Positions 6,848 to 48,790 of a DNA stretch of 64,000 bases are shown here, piece by piece. The translations under genes were made by a program, and so were the position numbers. Within the stretch, counting starts at the first letter, position 1. The number at the start of each line of letters is the position of its first letter. This stretch comes from Atribacterota bacterium (lineage in GTDB: Bacteria > Atribacterota > Phoenicimicrobiia > Phoenicimicrobiales > Stramentimicrobiaceae): the NCBI GenBank assembly GCA_040767965.1, contig JAXGNR010000009.1, positions 37,955 to 101,954 on the forward strand, written 5' to 3'. The notes beneath the pieces were generated by a model. That model was given only the letters and a program-made list of their open reading frames with translations, was not told where the DNA came from and ran no database searches.

Positions 6848-7864
6848 ATGGATATGCTTAAAGATAGCAGATATAATTTGAAGCCGGAGTTTCCGCCGCA
6901 TCTGTCTCTTGGAGTAAGCAAGGAAAAATTCATGCTGAAAACATGTGCAATCATGTCCATTCCATTGATCCTGGGGGTACTTGCAATTGGATGGCAAGCG
7001 CTTTGGCAGATCCTTATATCTTCCGGAACGGTTTTGATCCTGCATACTTTAATACAGTTTTGGGAAAGTCAGACAGAACGCCGTGTTTCATATCCTACAC
7101 CTGCATCACCGTTGGTACTGGCCTTGATAGTAGGTTTGAGTATGCCGGCTTCATCGCCATATACTGTGACTGTCGGAGTGGCTGCACTGGCTATGGTGAT
7201 ATTTAAATATTTACAAGGAAGAATTTTTACGCGCAAATTTGTAAATCCTGCTGCTGCTGCAAAAGCGGTGTTGTTGACAATGCTTTCACTTATGATATTT
7301 TTTGAAAATCCCCTTCGGGTAGGCATGCTCTACCATCCCCATCACTTGAATCTGGATTTGTTGTCTTCAGCTGGATTTGCTAGTGCGATTTCATTCTATG
7401 AAACTGATACTTTGACGGCTGTGCAGAGCCTGATCTTTTGGAAAACCCACGGTTGGATTGGTGGCGCTTCCGGGCTGGGAACGCTTGTTGCGGGAATAAT
7501 AGCCTGTTTCTGGATTAGACTTAAATGACGCATTCCCTTAGCTTTTCTTTCAGTAATGACTGTACTTTCAACAGGAATGGGGCTTTTTACGGGAGGAGAT
7601 CCTCTATCGCGTATTGCCCTGCATGTCTTTACCGGAAGTACTATTTTTCTGGCGTTTTTTATGGCTACCGAGCCTCAATCTACACCAATGCCGGAAAAAA
7701 GTCAGTACCTATTTGGTATCTCTTTAGCTGTACTTACTTTTGTTTTACAGCTGGCAGGAGTACTGGGTGGGTCTATTATTGCCCTGGTAATTTTAAATTT
7801 ATTCACTCCCTGGTTAGATAAAATTGGTCATAAAAGAGCTATAGGTATGAAAGGAGGCAAGTAG
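6848..7864 (+). pseudogene. rnfD: RnfD/NqrB-family membrane subunit interrupted by in-frame TGA at 7526-7528
   Basis: ORFs 6848-7528 and 7556-7864 are in the same frame; C-terminal FFMATEPQSTP matches the RnfD FFMATDP motif; combined length about 330 aa. Confidence 0.6.
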
Positions 7865-7865
7865 T

Positions 7866-9152
7866 ATGCGCAGGTATTATGAAGAAAAACAAGGCTTCAG
7901 GATTGATGCTAAAATGAAGTTAGGCCTGGAACAAAATGCCTTCGAAGTAATTCCAACACCTCCGGCGATAATAGTTTTCCTGGATCAACATGTTGGATTT
8001 CCTGGAAAGCCGCTGGTAAAAGAAGGAGACCGAGTCTTAACGGGCCAAAAAATATCTGATGGCGAGAAAAAGCTCACATTACCTGTGCACAGTCCTATTA
8101 CCGGTAGGGTGACCGGATTTGTTGAACTACGCCATCCTATTTCAGGAAAATTGAAGCACGCTGTAGCTATCGAAGCAGAAGGAGAAGAAGAGTGGATTCT
8201 TATGAAGCAGTATCCAAACTTTAAATCTTTAAGTAACCAGGAGATAATCAAACGAGTGCGGGAAGCCGGAATAGTAGGACTGGGTGGGGCTGCTTTTCCA
8301 ACATATATGAAATTATCCAGAGGATCTGATGTGGATCATCTGATTATAAATGCTAAAGAAAGTGATCCCAACCTTGCCTGTGATATTCGGTTGGCTCTTG
8401 AACAACCTGAAGAATTGATTAATGGGATCGAGATTATGGCTCGCGCTCTGGAGGTAGAGAAAGTTACTTTTGCTACCAGAACTGAAGAAGGTGAACTCCT
8501 TCAATTTGAAAAGCTTTTAAAAGAGCGAGGAATAAAAATTGCTCATATCAGACCTTCGTATTCGATAGGTAGTGAACGTCTGCTGGTACGTGAATTGTTG
8601 GGCAGAGAGGTGCCAGTCGATCAATACCCTCCGGATGTTGGTGTTGTGGTGCATAATGTGGCCACCTGTTTTGCAACCAGTGAAGCTGTTATTAAAGGTA
8701 AACCTCTTATTTCCAGAGGTATAACTTTTTATTCCAGTAAAACCGGAGGAAGAAACTTATGGGTAAGAATGGGCACTCCAATTGAACATATTCTGAACTA
8801 CATGAATATTTCTTCTGAGAACATAGATCGGGTTATCCTGGGATCAATAATGATGGGCAAAGGCGCACCTGATTTAAAAACACCCATGCTTAAGTGTTTT
8901 GCTGGCGTGGTAGCATTAACTTCCGATGAACATAGTTTATATAAAAACCCATCTCCGTGTATACGCTGTGGTTATTGTGATTCGATTTGTCCTGTGAATA
9001 TTTATCCATCTTTGCTTCTGGAAGCATTGGAAAAAGGCAGGACTGAGATCCTTGATTCTCTTAATATTAACTCATGTATAGACTGCAATCTTTGTTCTTA
9101 TGTATGCCCTTCTTCAATCAGAGTCAACCCCAAACAAAGAATGATGGGATAA
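7866..9152 (+). CDS. rnfC: RnfC-like electron transport subunit with two 4Fe-4S ferredoxin motifs
   Basis: 428 aa; GIVGLGGAAFPTYMKL motif; CIRCGYCDSICP and CIDCNLCSYVCP cysteine clusters; starts 2 nt after the rnfD-like ORF. Confidence 0.75.
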   Translation: MRRYYEEKQGFRIDAKMKLGLEQNAFEVIPTPPAIIVFLDQHVGFPGKPLVKEGDRVLTGQKISDGEKKLTLPVHSPITGRVTGFVELRHPISGKLKHAVAIEAEGEEEWILMKQYPNFKSLSNQEIIKRVREAGIVGLGGAAFPTYMKLSRGSDVDHLIINAKESDPNLACDIRLALEQPEELINGIEIMARALEVEKVTFATRTEEGELLQFEKLLKERGIKIAHIRPSYSIGSERLLVRELLGREVPVDQYPPDVGVVVHNVATCFATSEAVIKGKPLISRGITFYSSKTGGRNLWVRMGTPIEHILNYMNISSENIDRVILGSIMMGKGAPDLKTPMLKCFAGVVALTSDEHSLYKNPSPCIRCGYCDSICPVNIYPSLLLEALEKGRTEILDSLNINSCIDCNLCSYVCPSSIRVNPKQRMMG

Positions 9153-9524: not shown

Positions 9525-9630
9525 AAGCTCTAAGCCGAGAAAGGTAAACCATCGGTAACGATGGGACGCAAAGTCAAGGGTCCCGCCTCAACTAATCCCC
9601 TCAATGGGACTGCCAGACTATCTGCTTACT
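9525..9630 (+). ncRNA. c-di-GMP-I (GEMM)-like riboswitch aptamer
   Basis: GGUAAACC-AUCG-GUAA-CGAU-GGGACGCAAAG-UCAAGGGUCC closely matches the Vibrio Vc2 core GGCAAACC...GAAA...GGGACGCAAAGCC; P2-like stem GGUCCC/GGGACU; about 130 nt upstream of a surface lipoprotein gene. Confidence 0.65.
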
Positions 9631-9757
9631 GCACCATGTTTATTTATGATTCGAAAAGATAAATCATATTCAAACTAAACCCATTACAGCCATATTCTAT
9701 GATGAACAATTATTTAATAATATTAAAGCATGTTATATAAAAAAGGAGGCTATTTAA

Positions 9758-11965
9758 TGAAATTAAGTAAAAAACTGGTTTCTGTTAGCATGTTTTTATT
9801 GATTTTATTATTTCTGTCGAGCTGCGGAATTATACCGCAAACACCTGAAGGAAAGATTTCCGGCCGGGTACTGATTCCCCTATTTGAAATGTCTAAGGAT
9901 GTTAGCGGATGGATTCCCACAGCCAATGCCGTAGTCACTATTGTTGATGCTTCTGGAGTAACCCATACAACAACTACTGATGAGGAAGGTTATTATAATT
10001 TTGAAGATATTACAGTCAATCCAAATACAGTTATTACTGCATCAGTCACTGTAGATGAAAATATTGTCATACTTAAAAATGTAATACCCCATGCAGTCAC
10101 AGCAGGTGAAGACTATAATGCCGGTGAAATGACTCCTGAATCAACAGCATTGGCTCTGGTGGTAGAAGAACTCCTGGCAGAAGGCATGGATCCGGAAGAT
10201 ATTGACCATGAAGAGATAGAATCAAATGATAATTTTTCAGATTTAGTAGAAAAAATTACTGAAGTACTAGAAGAGGGAGGAGATGTAACTACAGATCCTG
10301 ATATTGTTGATATAATAAACGACATTATCAACCCACCTGTACCTCCCTTCGCCACCATCACCTTCTCCAACTACAAAATTACCGATCTATAACCAGACTC
10401 AGAAGACATATCATGATACTATCCAGAAGGCGATCGATGCATCCGGTAGTGGTGATATCATTATTGTCTCTAAAGGAACTATATAATGAAAACATTGTTA
10501 TTGATAACAAAAACATAACCCTGAAAGCTCCGACCCTGCAGATTCCGTTGTTGTGGCTGCCACCATCATAGACGGACAGGACTTGAATTCGGTGATAAAG
10601 ATCCTAAACGGAGACAAATCAAACCTGGAGGGATTTACCATCCAGAATGGAAATGAACCTGATTATGGAGGTGGGGGTATCTTTATCCGGCAGTTCTCCT
10701 GTGATCAGATACAACATTATTGGGGATAATATTGATGATGATATTGACACAGGGAATTTTGGAGATTGTGGTGGTGGAATTGGTGTTGTTGAATATAGTG
10801 AAACACCACATATTTATGAAAACATTATTATTGGCAACTCAGCAGACTATGGCGGCGGAATGTATATAGATTATGGTTCTCCTCTTGTTGAAAATAATAC
10901 GATTAAAGAAAATACCAGTAAGTACGACGGCGGAGGAATTACAGTGTTTTTCAGCAAGGAAGAGGAATATTGCCCAACCATCAGGGATAATACTATTGAA
11001 TATAATGTGGCAGATAATGGTGGTGGAATTGCTGTGGATGATTTAGGGATGCTATAATTGAAAATAACGGAATCAACAACAACGAAGCAATTTTTGGTGG
11101 AGGGATTTATGTTTATTACAAAGCTGATGCAGATATAAAAGGAAATAATATTATTGAAAACAATAAGGCAGGATATGATGGTGGAGGTATTTATATTGAT
11201 TCAGATGGCATCATCACTATTACCTCAAATACTATCAATAACAATGTAGCAAATATTGCTTCAGGTTCTTACTCCGGTGGAGGAATTTATGTGAATGAAA
11301 CATTCATGGCGACAACTCCCACAATTGGGGGTACGACGGGAATTGATACTGATAATTTTAACATTATCTGTGGTAACAGCCCTGACCAGGTGGATCCTGA
11401 TGATTATCCTAATAATTATTATTATACAATTGGCGATACAGGACCTGCTGGTGGGATCATCTTCTATATTGATGAAGCGAGACAGTTTGATTGGACTTAT
11501 CTTGAATGTGCACCCTATGGCTGGTATGATGGAGGAGAGGATCCAATACTGGCTTGGGGACCATGGGATGGAACCTCGGGATCACCTGGAGATGGTGTAG
11601 GAACAGGGATTTATGATTATGAATCGGATCTTGGGCTGGGGGAGGCAAATACCACCCTCATTCTTGCTGAAACTGGAACATTCCCAGCTGCTGAAGCAGC
11701 AGCTGCATATACAGGTGGTAGCCAAACAGACTGGTTTCTGCCCTCGAAATCTGAATTGAGTCTGATGTATTCCAATCTGTATCTGGCAGGATTGGGAGGA
11801 TTTTCTGATGATTCCACTAATCCACAAGATTTCTATTGGTCTTCTGCAGAAACTTCTCCTAACTCGGAATGGAAATTAGCTTGGACTAATTGTTTTGCAA
11901 GTGCAGGGCTTGGAGGATTCGATAAGACTTTGTCTTTTCGTGTTAGACCAATCCGAGCTTTTTAG
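9758..11965 (+). pseudogene. Large surface lipoprotein (beta-helix repeats, DUF1566-like C-terminus), multiply frameshifted
   Basis: Lipoprotein signal MKLSKKLVSVSMFLLILLFLSSCG; repeated GGGI beta-helix-type motifs; C-terminal DWFLPSKSELSLMY resembles DUF1566; reading frame changes at least three times. Confidence 0.6.
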
Positions 11966-34447: not shown

Positions 34448-34490
34448 ACATAAGCCTCTCATTTAATCATTGAGAGGCTTATGTTTTGTG
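34448..34490. terminator. Bidirectional intrinsic terminator
   Basis: ATAAGCCTCTCA / TGAGAGGCTTAT stem between convergent genes. Confidence 0.55.
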
Positions 34491-35581
34491 TAAAGACAAA
34501 TAGTGTAATGAGTAGCTATGCCAGCTAAAAATCCAAAAAACATATTTGTTACTAAAGCAACCAGGATAGTGGCCAGCATAGGAATTAAATTTTTGCTGGT
34601 CTTTACTTCTCTGGTGAATTTTAACAACTCCACTCCTACCATAAACATCATAGATCCAATAATTGCCAATGGAAAAACTGAAAATAGACTGGCAATAGAG
34701 GCTGAAAGAAATAATCCAAGGAATATTTCTATCAATCCTTCCAGGATATTGGCACCACCAGTTCTGGCTCCAAAATAGTACTGACCTGCTAATCCACCTG
34801 CACCATGACAGGTAGGCATTCCACCCAAAAAAGGAAGGATTGTGTTCATAATTCCCTGGTTCCAGGCAAGTTGTTTTTCACTTACATTTTTTTCAGGCCA
34901 ATATTTTTTAATCAAGGAAGATGTAGCAATGGTAGCATTTGTAGCTGTAAGTGGAACTTGTGCAAACCCAGCTAAGAGCAATGTCTGCCATACTTCTTTT
35001 ATGGAAAAGGTAGTAAAAGAAGGCATAACCAGAGAAGGAGCACTAAGTTGGTCAAATTGTCCCTGTATCAGCATTATTAATAACCCGATTACCATTAATA
35101 CAATTGCAGCTGGTGTATACCTGTTTTGCCTGAACAATAATACAATGATAATGGCAGCAATGCTGATAATCCAGTTTGTAGAGATCATTTTATAAGCTTG
35201 GAACATTAATAATATTCCCAGGGTTACTTGAATTCCCCGGATTACGGAATTTGGTGTTATTTTGGAGATTCGCTCAATAATCCCAGTTGTTGCAAGTAAA
35301 ATCCATATTATCCCCATTCCAAACCCGGAGGCATAGACCATGGAAGGAGTCCATTGCTGTGCAATTGCCACAATAGCTATAATTTTCATAGGTTCTATGG
35401 GTACTGGAAGCCGGTAAACCAATCCGGTTACTATATTACATAAGCCCATCATCACCAAAAAACTGGCTGGATCCAACCCGCAAACCACAATATAACCAAT
35501 GGCTAAAGGTAAAAGGGTACCAAAATCTCCCATTGAACCTGCCAGTTCTCTCAGGTTAAATTCAAAGGATTTTATTCTCAT
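34463..35581 (-). CDS. Putative sulfate/molybdate transporter (MOT/SulP-like)
   Basis: 372 aa polytopic membrane protein; last gene of the minus-strand uptake operon. Confidence 0.55.
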   Translation of the reverse strand: MRIKSFEFNLRELAGSMGDFGTLLPLAIGYIVVCGLDPASFLVMMGLCNIVTGLVYRLPVPIEPMKIIAIVAIAQQWTPSMVYASGFGMGIIWILLATTGIIERISKITPNSVIRGIQVTLGILLMFQAYKMISTNWIISIAAIIIVLLFRQNRYTPAAIVLMVIGLLIMLIQGQFDQLSAPSLVMPSFTTFSIKEVWQTLLLAGFAQVPLTATNATIATSSLIKKYWPEKNVSEKQLAWNQGIMNTILPFLGGMPTCHGAGGLAGQYYFGARTGGANILEGLIEIFLGLFLSASIASLFSVFPLAIIGSMMFMVGVELLKFTREVKTSKNLIPMLATILVALVTNMFFGFLAGIATHYTICLYTKHKPLND

Positions 35582-35694: not shown

Positions 35695-36465
35695 CTAACA
35701 AACAACACTAACAACTCTTTTGGCTTCTTCAACATAGACTGTTTTAATAGAAAGTCCATATAAATTAGAAAGAGTTTCGGCATTGATTGTTTCTGCAGAT
35801 TGTCCAACACCCAGGATCCCCTTACGATTGAGAATAGCAACTTTACCATTCAGAATAATAGCATGTTCCGGATTATGTGTTGTCATAATTAATGCATACC
35901 CTTCATCAGCCAGTTGGCTAATCATCTGTACTGCACGGTGCTGATTACCATAATCTAAGTGAGCTGTGGGTTCGTCAAGCAAGATTATTTTTGGTTGTTG
36001 AGTGATTACTCTGGCAATTAACACCATTTGTCTTTCACCACCGGAAATTTCAGTATACGGTTTATCTCTGAGATGGGAAATACCGAGACGTTCCAGCGAT
36101 TCATCAGCAATTCTATAATCTATTTTTCCAGGAGTTTTAAAAGCACCAATATAGGGAGTTCTACCCATAACAGTAAATTCTCTGACTGTAAAGGCATAAG
36201 CAGGGATATGAATTTGTGGAACGTAACCAATTATCTGGGCAACATCACGAATATTCATCTTTGAAAGAGACTGTCCGTTTAATCGAATTTCACCCGATTT
36301 TGGTTTGTAAATATTTGCAATGCAGTTGAGAAGTGTTGATTTTCCACACCCGTTAGGACCTAATATAGAGAGTATTTCACCATCATCTAGTTGAAAGCTA
36401 ACATTTTGGAAAATTGATCGTCCGTTATGGTATTTAAAACTGAGATTATTTATTTCAAGAAGCAT
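35695..36465 (-). CDS. ABC transporter ATP-binding protein (FecE/BtuD-type)
   Basis: Walker A GPNGCGKST, signature SGGERQ, Walker B ILLDEP. Confidence 0.9.
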   Translation of the reverse strand: MLLEINNLSFKYHNGRSIFQNVSFQLDDGEILSILGPNGCGKSTLLNCIANIYKPKSGEIRLNGQSLSKMNIRDVAQIIGYVPQIHIPAYAFTVREFTVMGRTPYIGAFKTPGKIDYRIADESLERLGISHLRDKPYTEISGGERQMVLIARVITQQPKIILLDEPTAHLDYGNQHRAVQMISQLADEGYALIMTTHNPEHAIILNGKVAILNRKGILGVGQSAETINAETLSNLYGLSIKTVYVEEAKRVVSVVC

Positions 36466-37550
36466 TATACCTGTCTCCTTTGTTTAAAAAGGATAAATAT
36501 AAAAAAGGGAGCCCCGATTACTCCGGTCAAAATTCCAAGCATAAGCTCAGCTGAAGTAAGAGTTCTACATAATATATCTATGATAAGCATAAATATCCCT
36601 CCAAAAATCATAGCGATTGGTAGCATTTTTTTATTATCTGAACCAATAATCATTCTGGCAGTATGTGGAATAACCAAACCAACCCATCCAACTGTACCTG
36701 ATAGACAAACAGAACTTGCTGTGATTAAGGTAGAAGATACAATGAATATTCCGCGAGTGGTACTGAGATTAATACCAAGCGTTTTTGCCTCATTATCACC
36801 CAGAGAGAGCACATTAAGTCTATATCTTAAAAGAATGATTATAATCATTGGCAGCAAAATTGTAGGTAATATAGGGATCATTGCATTAAAAGATACTTTG
36901 GCAAAAGAGCCCATCATCCAATAGGTAATTTCAGCTAATTGGGTGTCTGTATCTGCTACAAATTTTAAAATATTCATTATTGAAGACATTAGACTACCAA
37001 TAACTATTCCTGATAATACTAATACGATAGTAGACTGGTTTCGGATCAGTCTGGGTATGGTTACAGTTATAGCCACAGCAATCAACCCACCGGCAAATGC
37101 GCTAAGTTGAATCAATGCACTATCTTGATTTAAAAGGATCGCGGTAGCAGCCCCTACAGAAGCACCAGCTGATACACCTAACAGGTCAGGAGATACCATT
37201 GGGTTTTTAAAAATACTTTGGTAGGTGGCTCCGGAAAGCGCCAATGCTGCTCCAATGATAATGGCAGCAATTGTTCTAGGCAAACGCAGATTCATAACTA
37301 CAGCCTCTTGAATGCTATCCCAATTGTTGTCCATCGTTAAAATTTTTGAAAAAACAATCCGGAAAGTTTCCCTAAAAGGCACAGTATATTGTCCTATTGC
37401 CAGTGATATTCCTAAAACTATAAATAATAAAGCCAGAGAAAACAAAAAAATGCCATGATACTTAAAGATATCAAATATATTTTTCTTTTCTAAAACAACC
37501 TCTCCATTTAAACTGGAGAGGTTGTTTCTGTTTTGATTTATCTTTTTCAT
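36465..37550 (-). CDS. ABC transporter permease (FecCD/BtuC family)
   Basis: 361 aa polytopic permease. Confidence 0.9.
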   Translation of the reverse strand: MKKINQNRNNLSSLNGEVVLEKKNIFDIFKYHGIFLFSLALLFIVLGISLAIGQYTVPFRETFRIVFSKILTMDNNWDSIQEAVVMNLRLPRTIAAIIIGAALALSGATYQSIFKNPMVSPDLLGVSAGASVGAATAILLNQDSALIQLSAFAGGLIAVAITVTIPRLIRNQSTIVLVLSGIVIGSLMSSIMNILKFVADTDTQLAEITYWMMGSFAKVSFNAMIPILPTILLPMIIIILLRYRLNVLSLGDNEAKTLGINLSTTRGIFIVSSTLITASSVCLSGTVGWVGLVIPHTARMIIGSDNKKMLPIAMIFGGIFMLIIDILCRTLTSAELMLGILTGVIGAPFFIFILFKQRRQV

Positions 37551-37575: not shown

Positions 37576-38730
37576 TTACTGTACTGGAAATTCAGCTGAG
37601 CCATCAGGACGAAGACCATCAAGCATATATTCTGCCTGTGTCTGTGTTAGCTCATAGCCAGTATATATGCTATAAAAATCCCTGATTTCTTCAATCATTG
37701 CTTTTCTGTTAATAACGTTTACCCAGGCAATTTCAGGTTGGATGCGCATCAGAGCATAGTGGATTTGTAGTTGACTTTCCAGCCCAAAACGGTCCCAGTT
37801 AAAACAACCATAAGGGTTTGTGTATAATCTTTCATTAGATAAAGCCTTTAAATCTTTCCAGCCATCAGTGCTTTCCAGAACGTTTTTATTTATATGCTGA
37901 TAAACACCTGCACATATTATTACATCAGGATTTAAATCCCAGATAGCCTCTGGAGTTACTTCTCCGGAGCTTAGCTTCATTACCTCCGCAGCATTATTAC
38001 CTCCTGCAGATTCGATCCAATCAGAAATGATACTTCCTGCAGCCATAGTAGTGGTTACACTATCTGTTTGCCCAGCAATGTAATAGACGACCGGGCGATC
38101 ATTTTCTGCCAGACCTGAAGTTACCTTTCTTATCCCGGATAATTTGCTTTCAACTGCAGAACACCAATGATTAAGTTTTTCCTGATATTCCCCCCCAAGC
38201 ACTTCACCAAGGACAGTGTATGCCTTAACCATACTTTCATAGTCACTGAAATTGATATTTATAGCAGGAATACCAACATCACGAATTTGTTGAGCAAGAC
38301 CGCTGGCTGCAGTGGTTGGATGTATGATAACCAGATCAGGTTCTAAGTTTATCAGATTTTCAATTGCTGGAGTTATACCTCCCAGAGCGGGAATATTGAC
38401 ACAATCCGGATAAAAAAGTTGGGTCCAGGAGTTCATTGTTCCCGGATTGTTGACAGCCAGTCCAACTATTAGATCCCCAGCTCCCATTACAAAAAATGAG
38501 GATGTTCCTGCCGGCCATAAGTTAACAATTCTCTTAATTTCACCGGTTATGGTTACTGTATCACCACTCATATCCGTAACTGTAACTGTTTTATCAGCAG
38601 CGACAGAATTTATAACGGAAAACGCAATTGCAGTAAAGAAAATAAGTAGCAAAGCAAGTGTTTTAATTGTGATAGTGGTTTTTTTTGTTTTCATTATATT
38701 ACTTCTCCTTTTTATTGTTATATTCATCAT
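37576..38730 (-). CDS. ABC transporter substrate-binding protein, class 8 (BtuF/FhuD-like)
   Basis: Signal peptide after MKTKKTT; true start may be the internal Met. Confidence 0.8.
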   Translation of the reverse strand: MMNITIKRRSNIMKTKKTTITIKTLALLLIFFTAIAFSVINSVAADKTVTVTDMSGDTVTITGEIKRIVNLWPAGTSSFFVMGAGDLIVGLAVNNPGTMNSWTQLFYPDCVNIPALGGITPAIENLINLEPDLVIIHPTTAASGLAQQIRDVGIPAININFSDYESMVKAYTVLGEVLGGEYQEKLNHWCSAVESKLSGIRKVTSGLAENDRPVVYYIAGQTDSVTTTMAAGSIISDWIESAGGNNAAEVMKLSSGEVTPEAIWDLNPDVIICAGVYQHINKNVLESTDGWKDLKALSNERLYTNPYGCFNWDRFGLESQLQIHYALMRIQPEIAWVNVINRKAMIEEIRDFYSIYTGYELTQTQAEYMLDGLRPDGSAEFPVQ

Positions 38731-38809: not shown

Positions 38810-40120
38810 TTATTCTAAAGGATCTTTGCCAAATATTTCACTGCGTGGTAAAAAGCCGGCAGCTTCTTTATCTATTTCCAAAAACATTCTGGTAAATTCT
38901 TTTGCGGCCTCTTTGTGCAATGCAGCCCTTGGAATTGTTAAAGCATGAGCAATAGGTGTAGCTATTACAGATGTATTTTCATCTATGGCAAAAGTAACCC
39001 GGGCATATTTTTCAGCCAAAGAAGGATTGGCAAGATTCATTATTTCTGGTAGCTCTGCATAGTTTTTACCAAATACTTTGACTGCTGAACGATACATAAA
39101 AAGATATTTAGCCTGTTTTTGATTACCAAATAGACCAGGATTTTTTTCCATACCGATATGACCTGGATGATTCATCAGGCGATTTGTAAGTCCTGGTTTG
39201 TAATAATCTGCCAGCAGCATTGTCATTACAGCTCGATAACCGCTGGGGTCACCATAGGGATTGCCATGTTTGAATGTTGCATCTTCAGCAAGCAATTTTT
39301 CTTCCCAATTATCATTGTCTATATCTTCTCCTATTATTACCATTTCATTACCTGCCCAGATGCGGTATCCTTCAGCATAATCAGGCATCATCATAGAATT
39401 TATTATAGTATCATCCGCTGAAATCAATAGATCGCATGCTTTTCCACTTATGCAATCACGTATAAGATCTACTGATCCACCAGGTGTATAAATAACAGGC
39501 AGTTCAGGATGTAATTCATTCCATTTTTCAACAATAGTTTTTACCAGTCCCATTGATACACCTGCACAAAATACATTTAGTCTATAAGGGGCAAGTTCTG
39601 CTTCAAGTGAGGAGAGGGCTTCTGCTTTTTCTTTACGAACATCAGTAACTTTTTGGGCCAGTATACCTAAAAAATTACGCAGCATAATACCTTGTGGTTT
39701 ACTATATTTTTCTCCATAATACCTGGTAACCATTTCTCCGCTCATTCGCAACAGGTAAAGGTCAAATGTCTCATTTTTTGGTCCACCAGGGGGAGGACCT
39801 TTGATTTTTATTCTGGGAGCTCTACTCTTGTTCATTTCAGATAAACAAGGAATTTCTCCCATCATCATGCCCGGCTCAGTAGGTTTAGGCATATTGTATT
39901 GATCTAATCTGGGTTCTAAAAGTTCAAGTGGTTTTCCTTTAAGCACTACACAAAACATGCCTTCATTTATATCAATTGGCAAAGTTTTATATTGACCAGC
40001 TTCCCGACGTACCATTTCAGGTTTCATCACCTCTAACAGCGAGATCAGTTCTTCTTCATCGATATTTTGAAACAGAGTCATGGTTTTTAATTCAGGTAGA
40101 AAATCCCGATAATTTAACAT
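38810..40120 (-). CDS. Two-domain protein: N-terminal cNMP-binding-like region plus ModA/WtpA-like solute-binding domain
   Basis: 436 aa; no signal peptide; FCAGVSMG...GGSVDL...SGKACDLLISAD resembles molybdate/tungstate-binding proteins; first gene after the structured leader. Confidence 0.45.
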   Translation of the reverse strand: MLNYRDFLPELKTMTLFQNIDEEELISLLEVMKPEMVRREAGQYKTLPIDINEGMFCVVLKGKPLELLEPRLDQYNMPKPTEPGMMMGEIPCLSEMNKSRAPRIKIKGPPPGGPKNETFDLYLLRMSGEMVTRYYGEKYSKPQGIMLRNFLGILAQKVTDVRKEKAEALSSLEAELAPYRLNVFCAGVSMGLVKTIVEKWNELHPELPVIYTPGGSVDLIRDCISGKACDLLISADDTIINSMMMPDYAEGYRIWAGNEMVIIGEDIDNDNWEEKLLAEDATFKHGNPYGDPSGYRAVMTMLLADYYKPGLTNRLMNHPGHIGMEKNPGLFGNQKQAKYLFMYRSAVKVFGKNYAELPEIMNLANPSLAEKYARVTFAIDENTSVIATPIAHALTIPRAALHKEAAKEFTRMFLEIDKEAAGFLPRSEIFGKDPLE

Positions 40121-40161
40121 ATTACCTCCTGAACATATATTTTATGTATTTGTTTTAAAAA

Positions 40162-40330
40162 TAAAAAAAACGCCTTGGAAAGGCGTTATAAAAAAAGCTG
40201 TACAGAATACAGCCTTTAAAATGTTTCCTTTCCAAATGGGAGGCATGGTGGCTAATCCGTGCCCTCGAATACAGTTTTTTCTGTATTACCGTTTGGCAAT
40301 TCCATTTCCAATTGCCAAATCGGAAACAAA
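40162..40330 (-). promoter_or_regulatory. Structured 5' leader with two tandem intrinsic terminators (riboswitch or attenuator candidate, class unassigned)
   Basis: On the minus strand, hairpins at 40197-40213 and 40170-40187 are each followed by a U-run; upstream GC-rich stems; about 45 nt before the RBS and start at 40120. Confidence 0.45.
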
Positions 40331-40681
40331 CAATATTTATATTTTATAAGTTATATCAAACTACATATTGATTATGTTATCAAAAATAGAAATTAATAAA
40401 CTAATAGGAATGCTAACATCTTTTATTTGTCAAGTCAAGCCCTTTTTATTAGAAGTAACTACTGGCTATTAGGCTATTTTAAAATCATTTAAAGAAATCT
40501 ATCTGAGAATTTTAAAAAAGGTTACAGTTAGCATTGACATATTATTTAATGCTAATTTTTATTTGGGCTAAGCCAAATGTAGAATAATATAAATTCTTAT
40601 AGATAATAATATTAGAATTAATTTTTTATTTCAAATATGTTAAACTTAAACATTTAAGAAAAATAGAAAGGATAAAAAATA

Positions 40682-43683: not shown

Positions 43684-44013
43684 ATGTCAGAAAGAAGCAG
43701 AGTCAGAATTACTGTGGCAAAAATGTTAAGTACTGATGATGTATTTGGTGATAATCGTGAACAGGAAACCATTGATGATTATGTAACCAAATGTCCTAAA
43801 TTCCAGGAAGGACAGGAATTTATCGTGGAAAAGAATCTTGAAAAACCAGATAATTTTTGCAGCTGGGCCTGGAATGATATTCAAAGAGATGTAGTGGTGT
43901 TGAGTTTTGGAGGTAAATTCCCCTGGATGAAAGATAATTTATCTGTCAATTATAGCTGCTGCACAGATGGATTAAGACCGGTTGTTTTCAGACTGGAAAA
44001 AATTGAGGAATAA
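43684..44013 (+). CDS. TIGR04076-like Cys-rich small protein
   Basis: 109 aa; CPKFQEGQEF, FCSWAWNDI, LSFGGKFPW, CCTDGLRPVVF. Confidence 0.55.
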   Translation: MSERSRVRITVAKMLSTDDVFGDNREQETIDDYVTKCPKFQEGQEFIVEKNLEKPDNFCSWAWNDIQRDVVVLSFGGKFPWMKDNLSVNYSCCTDGLRPVVFRLEKIEE

Positions 44014-44095: not shown

Positions 44096-44845
44096 CTAAA
44101 ACATTAATTGTAAGGCAGCAATTACAGTCATAGTTATAATAAATATTCTGTATTTTTTTTCGTTGATCCTTTTGGCAATGAATACACCGAGAAAAGAACC
44201 AAGAAATATAATGGGAATAACCAGTGGAATAATCTTGAGAGTTTGCCAGTTAATTGTATTCCATAAAAAGACATGAAAGGGAAGTTTTATCCAGTTCACT
44301 GCAAAAAAGAATACTGCTGTTACTGCAATATATTTATTTTTTTTGTATTGCATAGCCAGCAAATAAACTGCAAAAATTGGTCCTGCTGCATTGCCTATCA
44401 TAGAAGAAAAACCGCTTAATACTCCTATTAGAATATATAAAACCTTACTACTGCTAGGGATATTTGTACCATTTTTATTATTTTTAATTTCTTTATGAAT
44501 TAAAAAGGCAACACAAATAAGGATAACAATACTCATTATAAATTTAAATTGACTGTCATTAATTGAATTCCCCAGAATTGCACCTAAAATTACACCGGTT
44601 GCTGCTGGTAATAAAAGTCTAAAAACTTCTGTTAATTTTACATATTTTTTATAGAAATAAACACCAAATATGTCTCCAATCATTAGAATTGGAAGAATCA
44701 CTCCTGTGGATGCCTTCGCTCCAAAAATATGAGCCATTACAGCGACAGAAGGCAAGTTTATTCCTGGAAGCCCTGATTTGCCCATACCAATTGATAAAGC
44801 TACAAAAAAGAGTGCTACTAATTCAGCAATAGTAAAGCCTAACAT
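44096..44845 (-). CDS. TauE/SafE-family sulfite exporter-like membrane protein
   Basis: 249 aa polytopic protein with internal repeat typical of TauE/SafE. Confidence 0.75.
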   Translation of the reverse strand: MLGFTIAELVALFFVALSIGMGKSGLPGINLPSVAVMAHIFGAKASTGVILPILMIGDIFGVYFYKKYVKLTEVFRLLLPAATGVILGAILGNSINDSQFKFIMSIVILICVAFLIHKEIKNNKNGTNIPSSSKVLYILIGVLSGFSSMIGNAAGPIFAVYLLAMQYKKNKYIAVTAVFFFAVNWIKLPFHVFLWNTINWQTLKIIPLVIPIIFLGSFLGVFIAKRINEKKYRIFIITMTVIAALQLMF

Positions 44846-45223: not shown

Positions 45224-46087
45224 GTGAAAAATGTTGTATCTGCACATTGGCTCCAAAAACATATTGATGATAAAAATATAGTAATCTTAGATTGCCGTTT
45301 TGATTTATATAATTCTGGATATGGGGGAAAAGCTTATCAGAAAAGCCATATAAAAAATGCAATTTTCTTAAATCTTGATAAAGAACTGGTAGGTTTGCAG
45401 GCAAAACATGGCGGAGCAAGACCACTGCCTGGCTTAAAACAAATAATCTCAGTCCTTAAAAGATATAATATTAACAAGAATAGCATCGTCATTGGTTATG
45501 ATGATCAAATGAATGCTGCTGCCAGGGTATGGTGGAGTTTAAAATATTTCGGATATAATAATTGTTACCTTTTAGATGGAGGCTTTAAAAACTGGGAAAC
45601 CAGTAGTTATCCGATTACCAGTGAGATCAAAAAATCTGCAATAAATTCAGAAAATATTGATATAAGTGTGAACGAAGATATGGTTTGCGAAATAGAGTAT
45701 GTCAAATTCAAAAAAGATCTTTCACATGTAGTTTTAATTGATGGAAGGGAAGAGATAAGATATACCGGAGAAAAAGAGAATCTTTATAAAAAAGCAGGTC
45801 ATATTCCTGGTGCTGTTAATTTCCCCGGCAGTAAAAATTTTCAAAAAAACGGATTATTAAAAGAGAAAAAAGAAATATCCAGGATGTGGAACTGGCTAAA
45901 ACCATATCAGGAAATAATCCTGTATTGTGGTTCAGGTATTGCTGCAAGTGTAAATTTCCTTGTATTAGATGAGCTTGGCTATTCCCCAAAGCTTTATATT
46001 GGTGGTTTTAGTGATTGGATTAGTTATTCTGAAAATGAAATTGCCAGAGGGAAGGAAGAAAAACAAAAGGGTAATTTAACTCATTAG
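45224..46087 (+). CDS. Rhodanese-domain sulfurtransferase (tandem rhodanese)
   Basis: GTG start; active-site-type loop LYCGSGIAAS in the second domain. Confidence 0.8.
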   Translation: MKNVVSAHWLQKHIDDKNIVILDCRFDLYNSGYGGKAYQKSHIKNAIFLNLDKELVGLQAKHGGARPLPGLKQIISVLKRYNINKNSIVIGYDDQMNAAARVWWSLKYFGYNNCYLLDGGFKNWETSSYPITSEIKKSAINSENIDISVNEDMVCEIEYVKFKKDLSHVVLIDGREEIRYTGEKENLYKKAGHIPGAVNFPGSKNFQKNGLLKEKKEISRMWNWLKPYQEIILYCGSGIAASVNFLVLDELGYSPKLYIGGFSDWISYSENEIARGKEEKQKGNLTH

Positions 46088-46308
46088 ATATTGACAAACA
46101 TAAAGAAATGGTAAATACTTTTAATAGTCTGCCTGAAAAAAAATATTATTACAGAATACCACAACTCCGAATTATCTAACCTAATGATAAAATACTATTT
46201 TTTTCTATGGTTAGATAATCAGTTATTATTTGTAAAATAACCAAGGGCAATTAAGGAAACTTAATTGCCTCCCATAATTGGAAAGGAGGGATACTTTGCA
46301 TGAAGTTC

Positions 46309-46385: not shown

Positions 46386-47231
46386 ATGGAATTTGTAACA
46401 TTAAATAACGATATAAAAATGCCCATGTTAGGGTATGGTGTATTTCAGATTGCAGATGAAAAAATATGCGAACAATGCGTATCTGATGCCATTAAGGCCG
46501 GCTATCGTTCCATTGATACAGCAGCAGCTTATTTAAACGAAGAAGCAGTAGGAAGAGGTATTGAAAAAAGTGGAATACCCAGAGAAGAACTCTTTATAAC
46601 AACTAAAGTCTGGGTACAGGATGCCGGTTATGAAAATGCTAAAAAAGCTTTTGAAAAATCCATGCAAAAATTGCAGCTGGATTACCTTGACCTATATTTA
46701 GTTCACTGGCCTTTTAGTGATTATTATGGTTCCTGGAGGGCAATGGAGGAACTTTATAAAGAAGGAAGAATCAGGGCAATTGGTGTTTCTAATTTTTCCA
46801 GAGATCGCCTGTTTGATTTAATATTAAATAGCGAGATAGTGCCAGCAGTTAACCAGGTTGAAGTACATCCGTTTAATCAGCAGATAGAACAAAAGAAGAT
46901 CATGGATGACTTAAAAGTACAGATGGAATCCTGGGGGCCACTGGCACAGGGTAAAAACAATATTTTTAAAGATGAAATATTGTCTGCCATTGGAAAGAAG
47001 TACAGCAAAACTGTGGCTCAGGTAATCCTGCGCTGGCATATTCAACGTGGAGTTGTTGCTATTCCCAAATCTGCTACCAAAGAAAGAATTATAGAAAATT
47101 ATAATATATGGGACTTTCAATTAAGCCAGGAAGATATGGATGCTATTAAATCTTTTGATACAGGCAAACCTTTCCTGGACGGCACCAGCTTAGAGACTGT
47201 TAAAAGATTAAACAGCAGTAAGATCCATTAA
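46386..47231 (+). CDS. Aldo/keto reductase
   Basis: 281 aa; IDTAAAY and LVHWP motifs. Confidence 0.9.
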   Translation: MEFVTLNNDIKMPMLGYGVFQIADEKICEQCVSDAIKAGYRSIDTAAAYLNEEAVGRGIEKSGIPREELFITTKVWVQDAGYENAKKAFEKSMQKLQLDYLDLYLVHWPFSDYYGSWRAMEELYKEGRIRAIGVSNFSRDRLFDLILNSEIVPAVNQVEVHPFNQQIEQKKIMDDLKVQMESWGPLAQGKNNIFKDEILSAIGKKYSKTVAQVILRWHIQRGVVAIPKSATKERIIENYNIWDFQLSQEDMDAIKSFDTGKPFLDGTSLETVKRLNSSKIH

Positions 47232-47332: not shown

Positions 47333-48790
47333 ATGGTTATAAAAAAGAAGAGAGTTATCCTGATTGTATGGGATGGACTAAGATCGGATTTTGTCAACAA
47401 AAGATTTACTCCAAACCTTTTTGAATTTGCCAGCAAAGGTGTTTTGTTTAAAAATCATCATTCAGTGTTTCCCAGCTGTACACGAGTGAACTGTGCATCA
47501 ATGGTTACCGGATGCTATCCCGATATGCATGGACTGATGGGCAATCAAATCTATATTTGTGATAAAAATCAGGATTTAAAGGTAATTTCAACCAGCAACT
47601 ACAAGCTTCTCAAGGAGTATAACAGACAAACTAAAGGGAATATGCTCCGAAAAACATCTATTACAGAAATTTTGAATGACCATCAAAAGAAATCTTTAGT
47701 ACTAAGTACTGGTTCGGGTGGTTCTGCTTATATCTTTGACCACAAAGAAAGCGGAGTGGTTATCAACAGCTCTTTTTGTTTCCCTGCAGAAATTTCTGAA
47801 CAATTAAGAAAAAAGATAGGGCCTTTCCCTGTTGAAGAAGTACCAAATAAAGAGCAAAACAAATATTTAGTACAGTCGTTTTTTAATTACTTTTTACCGG
47901 AAATGGACCCGGATTTAACTATTCTTTATTTGTGTGAACCGGATAAAACTCAGCACTATTATGGTATTGGTACTGTTCAATCCTGTCAGACAATTAAAGA
48001 CAATGACGACCTTTTTGGAGAATTTTTAATCGGACTTCAACAGTATAATTCTGTTAATGAAACAGATATCTTGATTACCTCTGACCATGGCGGTTCAACT
48101 ATTACAGGTACTGTTAACCCAGTCGATCTGTTAATTGAGGGTGGTTTTAAAGAAAATGAAAATTCAGACGATTTAACCATTGTTTCTTCAGATGGAAGCA
48201 TTGGTATATACCTGAAAAATTGGCAAAAAAATAAAATAATAGAAATAATTAAATACTTACAAGAACATGAATGGGTCGGACCCATCTTTTCAAAGACAGG
48301 AAGAGGAAAACTAGGATTAACTCCAGAGATAATGAATCTGGAGTTAATCAGATATAAAAATAATTTAGCTCCAGATTTATTGTTGTCTCTGAATTGGAAT
48401 ACAGGAAAAAATAAAAATGGCTTTCCCTGTGGAACCTATGCAGATACCTCCGTTTACCCTGTTGGCGGTGGAATGCATGGCTCTTTCAGCCCTTATGATA
48501 TGCACAATATTTTAATAGCGACAGGACCATCATTTCAATCCGGGTTGATAAGTAATTATCCTTCAGGAAATATCGACCTTGCTCCAACGATTTTATATTT
48601 ATTAGGATTAACCAACTCAGGAATGGACGGGCGCATCCTCGAAGAAGCATTTACTGGTTCTATCTTATTTTCAAAGGAACAATGGGAAGAGAAGATAATT
48701 GAAACAGAAGGTATTTCCTATAAACAAAGACTTGTAGTAAAAGAATTCGCAGGAAGGGAATATTTTACAATGTGTGAAGTAAACAAATGA
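47333..48790 (+). CDS. Alkaline-phosphatase-superfamily protein (nucleotide pyrophosphatase/phosphodiesterase-like)
   Basis: VWDGLRSD metal-binding N-terminal motif; SDHGG motif. Confidence 0.7.
   Translation: MVIKKKRVILIVWDGLRSDFVNKRFTPNLFEFASKGVLFKNHHSVFPSCTRVNCASMVTGCYPDMHGLMGNQIYICDKNQDLKVISTSNYKLLKEYNRQTKGNMLRKTSITEILNDHQKKSLVLSTGSGGSAYIFDHKESGVVINSSFCFPAEISEQLRKKIGPFPVEEVPNKEQNKYLVQSFFNYFLPEMDPDLTILYLCEPDKTQHYYGIGTVQSCQTIKDNDDLFGEFLIGLQQYNSVNETDILITSDHGGSTITGTVNPVDLLIEGGFKENENSDDLTIVSSDGSIGIYLKNWQKNKIIEIIKYLQEHEWVGPIFSKTGRGKLGLTPEIMNLELIRYKNNLAPDLLLSLNWNTGKNKNGFPCGTYADTSVYPVGGGMHGSFSPYDMHNILIATGPSFQSGLISNYPSGNIDLAPTILYLLGLTNSGMDGRILEEAFTGSILFSKEQWEEKIIETEGISYKQRLVVKEFAGREYFTMCEVNK

Follow-up and report, generated by a model that had tools for sequence, protein, structure and literature searches.

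An uncharacterised intracellular protein combining a CRP-type sensor domain with a normally extracellular tungstate/molybdate-binding domain

Why should an operon for an ABC importer, which already includes a secreted binding protein, begin with a gene for a second binding-protein-like domain that has no signal peptide and is fused to a cyclic-nucleotide-binding-like domain? The question was raised by a preliminary description, made by eye, of 64,000 nucleotides of DNA from an Atribacterota bacterium (hereafter the window, to which all coordinates refer). The open reading frame (ORF) in question (38810-40120, minus strand) starts with ATG, is preceded by a ribosome-binding site (AGGAGG) 6 nt 5' of this codon and encodes a protein of 436 aa. 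The ORF was recovered as described, and all peptide strings quoted for it were present in its translation: LFQNIDEEELISLLEVMKP (aa 16-34), FCAGVSMG (aa 184-191), GGSVDL (aa 214-219) and SGKACDLLISAD (aa 225-236). The 118 full-length relatives found in the databases, with identity down to 42%, argue that neither the ORF nor the leader features presented below are due to chance. The start of the protein is also conserved, M1 and Y4 being kept among 35 homologues.

Carriers of the fusion gene belong to Atribacterota, Clostridia, Dehalococcoidales and Spirochaetia. Most are uncultured (Atribacterota, Syntrophomonadaceae, Dehalococcoidales, Spirochaetia), and the two cultured carriers are Christensenella sp. 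MSJ-20 and Mangrovibacter yixingensis. Annotation pipelines label the genes as 'substrate-binding domain-containing protein' or 'molybdate/tungstate transport system substrate-binding protein', which wrongly implies a periplasmic transporter component. No description of the family was found in the literature on cytoplasmic ModA/WtpA-like proteins, on Moco riboswitches with type II transporters or on WtpA with riboswitches. The protein is an uncharacterised intracellular protein in which a CRP-type sensor domain is joined to a tungstate/molybdate-binding domain that is normally extracellular.

Domains and cellular location of the fusion protein

The N-terminal domain (aa 1-179; 39584..40120, minus strand) consists of a CRP/FNR-type cyclic-nucleotide-binding-like beta-roll closed by a helix of 43 residues (aa 137-179). 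It matched the CRP/FNR family (hhalign 99.3%), with the sensor domain of HcpR from P. gingivalis (5v30/9day) as closest structure. The fold (CNB beta-roll with C-helix) and the homology to the family are thus both recognisable. As in CRP/FNR proteins, N-terminal helices are followed by a beta-roll with the G-E position of the 'phosphate-binding cassette' (E89 invariant, G88 mostly kept) and by a long C-helix, the element through which CRP proteins dimerise. Unlike in these proteins, the loop following the cassette appears expanded (low confidence), with a basic, Pro-rich insertion of about 14 residues, no match to Pfam PF00027 was obtained in aa 1-179, even at E 10, and no cNMP-contacting (phosphate-binding) Arg is conserved across the family. 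Binding of cyclic nucleotides by this domain is therefore unlikely: the resemblance noted in the preliminary description holds for the fold and not for the ligand.

A further difference from CRP/FNR proteins is that the binding-protein domain replaces the HTH output domain. No HTH or other nucleic-acid-binding domain was found in the 436-aa protein, and an HTH is kept in distant relatives only, such as P0154 (HTH_Crp_2, E 1.4e-13). Paralogues made of standalone or tandem N-domains exist, and one standalone gene adjoins moeA (locus L076). The domain order is swapped in the fusion P0141, the gene of which lies beside a Peripla_BP_2 gene, and probably in P0102 too; the existence of such swapped fusions indicates that the two domains work together. 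Among the N-domain-only and other N-domain fusion proteins, the neighbourhoods of P0154, P0136, P0128 and P0119 were uninformative owing to short contigs. The homology to CRP regulators, the HTH of P0154 and the N-domain paralogues would fit a CRP-family regulator whose HTH was exchanged for a Mo/W-sensing domain and which would act on transcription or RNA by an indirect route, such as the formation of heterodimers that titrate a CRP-type partner. Such a role is very improbable, as the protein has no nucleic-acid-binding domain of its own, the operon is already controlled by a riboswitch (see below), and no CRP-type partner gene is conserved near the fusion loci.

The C-terminal domain (aa 180-436 plus stop codon; 38810..39583, minus strand) displays the WtpA/ModA-type class II periplasmic-binding-protein fold (SBP_bac_11) and is homologous to solved WtpA structures. 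Homology and fold comparison thus bear out the ModA/WtpA-like assignment; an unrelated fold was found for neither half of the protein, and both domain calls survived testing. In the alignment with A. fulgidus AF_0094, D153, E218, S70 and Y236, which together with S42 we take to be the numbers of its ligand residues, correspond to D291, E325, S216 and Y343, respectively. These four putative oxyanion ligands, assigned by sequence alignment, are highly conserved across 119 sequences (D291 119/119, S216 116/117, Y343 116/116, E325 as E/D 101/117). The fusion accordingly retains Asp and Glu carboxylates with Ser/Tyr hydrogen-bond donors, and a two-carboxylate principle has been described for WtpA-class proteins (PMC11350598). 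From these residues we infer that the ligand is molybdate or tungstate.

Several features set the domain apart from archaeal WtpA. The S42 position is occupied by V188, and by Val or Cys across the fusion family; C229, H321 and H392 are family-specific invariants; and a short HPGHxGM(E/D) motif stands in for a WtpA segment of about 45 residues beside the second carboxylate ligand. The scores are also well short of the equivalog cut-offs set for WtpA in NCBIfam (NF003196, 129.7 bits vs 355; TIGR03730, 128.3 vs 242.75). The invariant Cys and His, the changed Ser position and the lost segment suggest that the pocket has been remodelled and that the ligand could differ. Together with the low equivalog scores, they are the main argument for a pocket holding another species, which the fusion would process or chaperone; thiomolybdate or thiotungstate, an importer-borne metal-chelate, a metal cation, and a pterin or Moco precursor are candidates. 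We consider this unlikely, given that the four key ligand positions of WtpA are retained; further points on both sides come from the importer genes.

With respect to location, no hydrophobic N-terminal stretch was detected in the first 40 aa of the 436-aa protein (Kyte-Doolittle), where the maximum 12-residue mean was 0.92; the secreted binding protein encoded next to it reached 2.88. Hydropathy and the conserved start thus agree with the claimed lack of a signal peptide. No signal peptide, lipobox or TM segment was found among the approximately 118 relatives. C-only relatives of 250-280 aa also have no signal peptide and begin right at the first beta-strand; the nearest canonical WtpA match, P0118, has a lipoprotein signal. 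In the fusion, the folded CRP-like domain begins at residue 1. The predicted cytoplasmic location of the 436-aa protein was thereby confirmed. That the location was misjudged and the fusion is an exported second extracellular binding protein of the importer is hardly credible: all of its nearest characterised relatives are located outside the cell, but the lack of export signals throughout the family, the CRP-like domain starting at residue 1 and the abrupt start of the C-only forms speak against export. Moreover, WtpA-type proteins dock on type I permeases, not on type II permeases such as the one encoded here.

Riboswitch leader, importer genes and conservation of the module

The leader that the preliminary description had placed in control of the operon proved to contain a variant of the Moco RNA motif (RF01055; 40209..40337, minus strand). 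The aptamer was missed when the whole window was searched with Rfam at the gathering threshold and was found in a local search by E-value (33.8 bits vs a gathering score of 36; E 3.1e-6). Its P3 stem is present, and its P4 loop reads AUUAGCC instead of a GNRA tetraloop. The same variant was found upstream of the homologous operon in 10 loci (L007-L010, L012, L013, L015-L017, L019), with near-identical copies in L007, L013 and L019 scoring 36.0-36.4 bits. RNAalifold analysis of the 11 variant leaders returned the five Moco stems with 33 pairs, 10 of them showing compensatory changes, and the cores UCCGA, GCCUCCC and GGAAAGGA were invariant. The variants represent a subclass of Moco riboswitches at or below the Rfam threshold that is currently missed. 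Between aptamer and start codon, an expression platform (40161..40214, minus strand) comprises two tandem terminator-like hairpins (about 40214-40190 and 40187-40161), each followed by a U-run. Both were read from the sequence, the second being flagged by a terminator scan as well, and they would act as riboswitch terminators.

The Moco motif was detected at the gathering threshold upstream of the module in 11 loci, and the variant in the window and in 7 more. With Rfam, it was not found in L002, L003, L014, L018, L022, L029, L033-L036 and L038-L042. The riboswitch is thus missing from about a third of the loci, and its control of the module is frequent and not universal.

The fusion gene is followed on the minus strand by genes for a secreted class-8 substrate-binding protein (37576..38730; Peripla_BP_2, PF01497, 6.6e-18) with a hydrophobic N-terminal signal segment, a FecCD-family permease of a type II ABC importer (36465..37550; PF01032, 1.3e-86) and an ABC ATPase of 256 aa (35695..36465; PF00005, 8.9e-37), for which the domain search returned only ABC_tran and no C-terminal regulatory domain. 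The last gene, located 113 nt from the ATPase gene, encodes a MOT1-family (SulP-related) putative molybdate transporter (34463..35581; MFS_MOT1, PF16983, 9.9e-54) with a weaker Sulfate_transp match. The separate secreted binding protein and the MOT/SulP-like final gene were therefore correctly recognised by eye. For the ABC genes, the label MolBC-A-like fits better than 'BtuFCD-like': among solved structures, the permease is closest to HI1471 (MolB of H. influenzae, 1.8e-64), followed by a haem permease (4.5e-50). Transport of cobalamin by a BtuFCD-type system was rejected in view of the Moco riboswitch, the MolB-like permease and the MOT1 gene. Likewise, where sensing or uptake of an oxyanion or a cofactor had been proposed, the Moco riboswitch leader favours Mo/W over cobalamin. 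The riboswitch and the MOT1 neighbour suggest that the ABC genes encode a MolABC-type importer with Mo/W as putative substrate. No Moco-biosynthesis or Mo/W-enzyme genes that could tell which metal is used were found in the wider 64-kb window.

These genes also bear on the possibility of another ligand in the WtpA-like pocket. The usual cargo of type II importers is bulky chelates or cofactors, and the secreted binding protein of the operon is closer to 4ovk (1.5e-23, its best PDB relative), a protein to which no ligand is assigned, than to MolA (HI_1472, 5e-8). Both points would favour such a ligand; against it, the permease is nearest to the sole type II importer known for a bare oxyanion, and MOT1, from a family of molybdate carriers, shares the operon.

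Of the 50 informative loci, 44 (88%) carry Peripla_BP_2/FecCD genes no more than 6 kb from the fusion gene, with the importer genes lying downstream in 32, upstream in 10 and divergent in 2 of the 44. In the 'fusion-last' arrangement, it often lies about 20-30 nt after the ATPase gene. The fusion gene is thus a conserved fourth component of the MolABC-type module. The MOT1 gene, for which no match was obtained in 80 other loci examined, is specific to the window and stands outside the conserved module. The importer is absent nearby in 6 informative loci; members without it occur at L003 and L030 and, beside pstSCAB-phoU, at L035. C-only forms lie directly under a Moco riboswitch at L005 and L032, and a MoeA-PBP_like fusion is encoded near the homologue at L002. 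Members without importer, C-only and N-only forms indicate that the fusion is a soluble protein and not an obligate subunit of the transporter.

Possible roles of the fusion protein

The role that we favour, tentatively and at somewhat less than even chance, is that of a dimeric cytoplasmic receptor for Mo/W oxyanions, which buffers or hands off the imported metal. Scarcity of Moco would lead the Moco riboswitch to switch on the whole module. The fusion protein, soluble in the cytoplasm and probably dimeric through its long CRP-type helix, would bind molybdate or tungstate in its WtpA-type domain by means of the 'octahedral' ligands, Asp plus Glu, that archaeal WtpA uses. By trapping and buffering the oxyanion inside the cell, it would make uptake by the low-affinity importer, and here also by the reversible MOT1 carrier, effectively one-way and maintain a supply of the oxyanion from which the cofactor can be made. 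The CRP-like domain would serve for dimerisation and would bring in a second regulatory input that controls binding or release. In favour of the receptor count the WtpA homology with its conserved ligand positions in 119 members, the lack of a signal peptide, the linkage to the importer genes, the Moco riboswitch upstream of the module, the members and single-domain forms that occur apart from the importer, the swapped fusions, and the MolB-like permease and MOT1 gene of the window. Against it count the Val/Cys at the S42 position, the replaced segment of about 45 residues, the family's own invariant Cys and His, and the lack of a riboswitch in about a third of the loci. Furthermore, buffering leaves the CRP-like domain without a specific role. 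To our knowledge, every CNB-domain protein described so far is a regulator, in better agreement with a feedback role, and the tight, near-universal adjacency to ABC genes also fits a subunit regulating the transporter.

Such a feedback (trans-inhibition) sensor is the main rival and appears possible, if less probable than the receptor. The dimer would dock under the two ATPase subunits and, once its WtpA-like domains are filled with cytoplasmic molybdate or tungstate, lock the transporter off, a control in trans comparable to that exerted in cis by TOBE in ModC or by the SBP-like C-terminal domain in NrtC/CmpC. The ATPase, with its 256 aa, offers no regulatory domain of its own; the fusion gene adjoins ABC genes in 88% of the informative loci, often about 20-30 nt after the ATPase gene; and a CRP-like architecture is typical of allosteric regulators. 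At L035 the fusion gene comes after phoU, whose product negatively regulates a different oxyanion ABC importer. The 6 informative loci without importer and the separate C-only and N-only forms do not favour this sensor, and the swapped domain order of P0141 is hard to square with a fixed docking geometry. In addition, no homology links the cytoplasmic domain with the operon's own class-8 protein, unlike the situation in NrtC/CmpC.

For the CRP-like domain, a more speculative role, which we rate as quite improbable, is that it senses an intermediate of Moco synthesis and gates either the holding and release of oxyanion by the WtpA-like domain or the shut-off of the MolABC-type importer. Cyclic pyranopterin monophosphate, a GTP-derived cyclic phosphate and hence cyclic-nucleotide-like, would be the candidate signal, with MPT or Moco as alternatives. 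If this were true, the fusion would found a new class of intracellular metal-oxyanion receptors that are gated by a ligand, and metal supply would be coupled to pterin supply at the protein level, besides the riboswitch.

Comparison with known systems

Archaeal WtpA/ModA proteins, formerly 'UPF0100' (AF_0094, MJ1186 of M. jannaschii, WtpA of P. furiosus), provide the closest match to the C-terminal domain. In contrast to them, the fusion is cytoplasmic, has no signal peptide or lipobox, carries a CRP-like domain and accompanies a type II (FecCD) permease instead of a type I permease (WtpB/ModB), in addition to the differences in the pocket given above.

The downstream genes resemble MolBC-A of H. 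influenzae (HI1470/71/72) in the kinship of the permease, an NBD without regulatory domain and a class-8 binding protein. They differ in that the kinship of the binding protein with MolA is distant, the operon stands under a Moco riboswitch, and a cytoplasmic CRP-like/WtpA-like protein is undescribed for MolBC-A. In the H. influenzae cluster, HI1469, annotated as modA, adjoins molABC (PMC3928620, PMC4031551). The regulation of MolBC-A is not understood, and a factor coupling cytoplasmic molybdate to the importer is required (PMC4031551), which is an argument for the feedback sensor. The fusion could be this missing cytoplasmic regulator of type II Mo/W importers.

A binding-protein fold acting inside the cell as sensor of a transported oxyanion has a parallel in NrtC and CmpC, the ATPases of cyanobacterial nitrate and bicarbonate importers, which carry a cytoplasmic SBP-homologous regulatory domain. 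Their domain forms part of the ATPase polypeptide and shares homology with the binding protein of the same transporter, whereas the fusion is a separate polypeptide with a CRP-like domain, and its binding-protein domain (SBP_bac_11) is unrelated in fold class to the binding protein of the operon (Peripla_BP_2); CmpC is mentioned in PMC11349869.

Finally, soluble intracellular Mo/W binders, often encoded near uptake genes, are found among TOBE/molbindin proteins such as Mop, ModG and Tub of E. limosum (PMC11980592), and PBP_like domains (PF12727) fused to MoeA or HTH likewise bind molybdate or tungstate inside the cell. TOBE is an unrelated fold: no Pfam match to TOBE was obtained in the fusion, a class II binding protein, and none to PF12727. 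The tungsten storage protein Tub, being a TOBE protein, was rejected as a relative. We know of no CRP-like partner domain in TOBE/molbindin or PBP_like proteins. How imported molybdate and tungstate are dealt with in the cell has been described chiefly for TOBE/molbindin proteins and ModE. The fusion family would add a different solution, in which a binding-protein fold from the 'outside' has been put to use in the cytoplasm and coupled to a CRP-type sensor, in little-studied anaerobes whose metabolism depends centrally on tungsten and molybdenum enzymes. Together with the MolABC-type importer and the Moco riboswitch, the fusion suggests a new intracellular receptor for trace metals.

Gene cluster and location of the 436-aa protein

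The ORF at 38810-40120 (-) encodes 436 aa, and every peptide string quoted in the preliminary description was found in its translation. It starts with ATG just downstream of an AGGAGG ribosome-binding site and is the first gene of a cluster. The separate secreted class-8 binding protein was recovered as a Peripla_BP_2 protein with a signal sequence (37576-38730, -). It is followed by a FecCD permease (36465-37550, -) and a 256-aa ABC ATPase (35695-36465, -) overlapping the permease stop, in which a regulatory domain was sought and not found. The last gene, proposed to be MOT/SulP-like, codes for an MFS_MOT1 transporter (34463-35581, -; PF16983, E 1e-53). The 113-nt gap ahead of it contains a promoter-like site, so that its co-transcription with the cluster is not certain; it is joined to the module in the window only, being absent from all of about 80 related loci.

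As claimed earlier, the 436-aa protein has no signal peptide. No hydrophobic N-terminal segment was detected, the maximal 12-residue hydropathy within the first 40 aa being 0.92 against 2.88 for the adjoining secreted binding protein. The start is kept among homologues, with M1 and Y4 invariant in 35 sequences.

Among proteins of solved structure, the permease was closest to HI1471 (MolB) from the type II molybdate/tungstate importer of H. influenzae (1.8e-64), compared with about 1e-50 for haem and B12 permeases. The binding protein matched MolA weakly (5e-8), and its better matches were binding proteins of unknown ligand.

A WtpA-like domain fused to a CRP-like domain

Residues 180-436 matched Pfam SBP_bac_11 (1.3e-14). 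Matches to the WtpA equivalog models of NCBIfam (about 1e-37) stayed far under the cut-offs of those models. With a family profile, E-values ranged from 5e-48 to 2e-31 for archaeal WtpA/ModA proteins of solved structure and were 1e-6 at best for bacterial ModA, in agreement with the ModA/WtpA-like domain proposed at the outset. Putative ligand positions were assigned by HMMER alignment to AF_0094 and their conservation was counted in a 119-sequence family alignment. Of the ligand residues of A. fulgidus WtpA, D153 corresponds to D291 (kept in 119/119), E218 to E325 (E or D in 101/117), S70 to S216 (116/117), Y236 to Y343 (116/116) and S42 to V188, which is not conserved (Val/Cys). In the WtpA class, one Asp and one Glu carboxylate produce a distorted octahedral coordination of the oxyanion (PMC11350598). 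Unlike in WtpA, a short HPGHxGM(E/D) motif replaces about 45 residues between two aligned blocks, and C229, H321, H392, W200 and N258 are invariant residues peculiar to the family. From homology, aligned ligand positions and these differences, the domain is truly homologous to WtpA, its core putative ligand set being kept and its pocket remodelled. That the remodelled pocket would take up a chelate or some other Mo/W species is considered improbable. Shorter forms consisting of the C-domain also lack signal peptides and can stand directly behind a Moco riboswitch (L005, L032).

The N-domain profile gave just 63 matches among 1.84 billion representative proteins, including standalone proteins of 176-190 aa and CRP-type regulators with PF00027 and HTH_Crp_2 (P0154, 1.4e-13; P0174 and P0176, weakly). 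Alignment with five weaker CRP-type matches by hhalign (99.3% probability, E 4e-20) extended over 142 columns and took in the long C-helix. The cNMP-binding-like N-terminus of the preliminary description thus stands as to fold and ancestry, which are CRP-like, whereas binding of a cyclic nucleotide is unlikely from the sequence: the position of the phosphate-binding cassette is occupied by an invariant EPGMMMGEIPxLS motif, followed by an expanded, basic, Pro-rich loop (low confidence) in which no conserved Arg was found in the family alignment. Helix 137-179, 43 residues long, is rich in invariant polar positions (Q143, N149, Q156, K157, D160, R162) and is, by analogy with CRP, probably the dimer interface.

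Other N-domain architectures (among them P0102) include tandem duplications (P0119, P0120), fusions to an NTP_transf_5 nucleotidyltransferase domain (P0136, P0138) and a reversed-order fusion with SBP_bac_11 (P0141; L046 8001-9398), in which the WtpA-like domain comes first and the N-domain last, adjoined by a Peripla_BP_2 gene. A standalone N-domain gene (L076 645-1244) precedes moeA, coding for molybdopterin molybdenumtransferase (1592-2884), a single hint that the N-domain lineage is connected with metal insertion into the cofactor. Altogether, the analysis shows a cytoplasmic WtpA-type domain with an intact putative ligand set, joined to a CRP-type sensor/dimerisation domain that may stand on either side of it.

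Linkage to the importer and to Moco riboswitches

The protein has 118 relatives in a collection of 5.8 billion proteins, and among about 185,000 species genomes its family is present in 36, belonging to Atribacterota, several Clostridia families, Dehalococcoidales and Spirochaetia. An Atribacterota MAG protein is 82% identical; two carriers are cultured (Christensenella sp. MSJ-20 and Mangrovibacter yixingensis). Co-occurrence was assessed by BLAST of the window proteins against the ORFs of 83 loci. Peripla_BP_2/FecCD genes were located within 6 kb of the fusion gene in 44/50 loci with informative flanks, a count in which some organisms may appear twice as only identical contigs were de-duplicated. 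They lie downstream in 32 loci, upstream on the same strand in 10 and divergently in 2. This very tight linkage, the descent of the N-domain from regulators and the fact that MolBC-A is acknowledged to have no known regulator (PMC4031551) would all suit a trans-acting feedback sensor of the importer, one of two mechanisms that fit, held with rather low confidence.

The leader of the preliminary description was identified as a Moco RNA motif ahead of the fusion gene (40209-40337, -), scoring 33.8 bits (GA 36) with E 3e-6 in a local Rfam search. It contains the P3 stem; Regulski et al. (PMC2408646) reported that examples with this stem are associated with Moco metabolism, and those lacking it with tungsten-cofactor metabolism. 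The leader is a variant whose P2 is short and whose P4 loop is AUUAGCC instead of the GNRA tetraloop; this variant also stands immediately before the homologous operon in ten loci (L007-L010, L012, L013, L015-L017, L019). The RNAalifold consensus of the 11 variant leaders displayed the five-stem Moco architecture, and compensatory changes at 10 pairs support this fold. As their scores (33.8-36.4 bits) lie at or just under GA, which three of the ten non-window loci barely meet, this variant subclass is partly missed by standard annotation. In L001, L005, L011, L021, L023, L024, L027 and L032 the module stands behind a classical, high-scoring Moco riboswitch (54-80 bits), and the Rfam search of further loci left some without any detectable motif. 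The fusion gene is shown to be co-inherited with a MolB-like type II importer, commonly under a Moco riboswitch.

A second, strong Moco riboswitch (46153-46304, +; 80.9 bits) is located just downstream of a two-domain rhodanese gene (45224-46087). The two genes behind it (46386-47231, 47333-48790) code for a DkgA-like aldo/keto reductase and for a member of the alkaline-phosphatase superfamily (type I phosphodiesterase), neither with a recognised Moco-related function. Between both Moco-riboswitch loci lie genes for a TIGR04076-family small Cys-containing protein (43684-44013, +) and a TauE/SafE-type membrane protein (44096-44845, -). Elsewhere, a c-di-GMP-I riboswitch (9533-9625, +; 48.7 bits) precedes an ORF of 220 aa (9730-10392) in which a CarboxypepD_reg-like domain scored weakly.

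Proposed function and known analogues

Based on domain make-up, importer linkage and the Moco riboswitch, we conclude that the 436-aa protein is a putative intracellular binder of molybdate and/or tungstate working with the importer. It may act as a trap, buffer or hand-off protein for the oxyanion inside the cell. This role is tentatively ranked slightly ahead of the feedback sensor; it is favoured by fusion genes without a transporter, C-domain-only forms and the moeA and MoeA-PBP_like neighbours in L076 and L002. Fusion loci without a nearby importer are L003, L030, L035, L002, L057 and L066. In L003 and L030, BLAST of the locus ORFs revealed no transporter near the fusion gene; tandem standalone N-domain paralogues lie immediately upstream (6881-7399 and 7449-7970; 7035-7559 and 7608-8129, respectively), and a tungsten-type (AFOR-type) aldehyde:ferredoxin oxidoreductase gene is found about 6 kb away. 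In the cultured enterobacterium M. yixingensis (L035 3083-9323), a PstS/PstC/PstA/PstB/PhoU-like operon directly before the fusion gene takes the place of the type II importer. In L002, a MoeA-PBP_like gene is among the neighbours.

A literature search for the fusion architecture or the clade found no paper describing either, and databases label the family as generic substrate-binding protein. Cytoplasmic Mo/W binders and cytoplasmic sensors with a binding-protein fold are both already known kinds. A feedback sensor would resemble the TOBE domain of ModC or the SBP-like domains of NrtC/CmpC, and for the buffer role the TOBE/molbindin protein Tub offers a functional analogue (PMC11980592).
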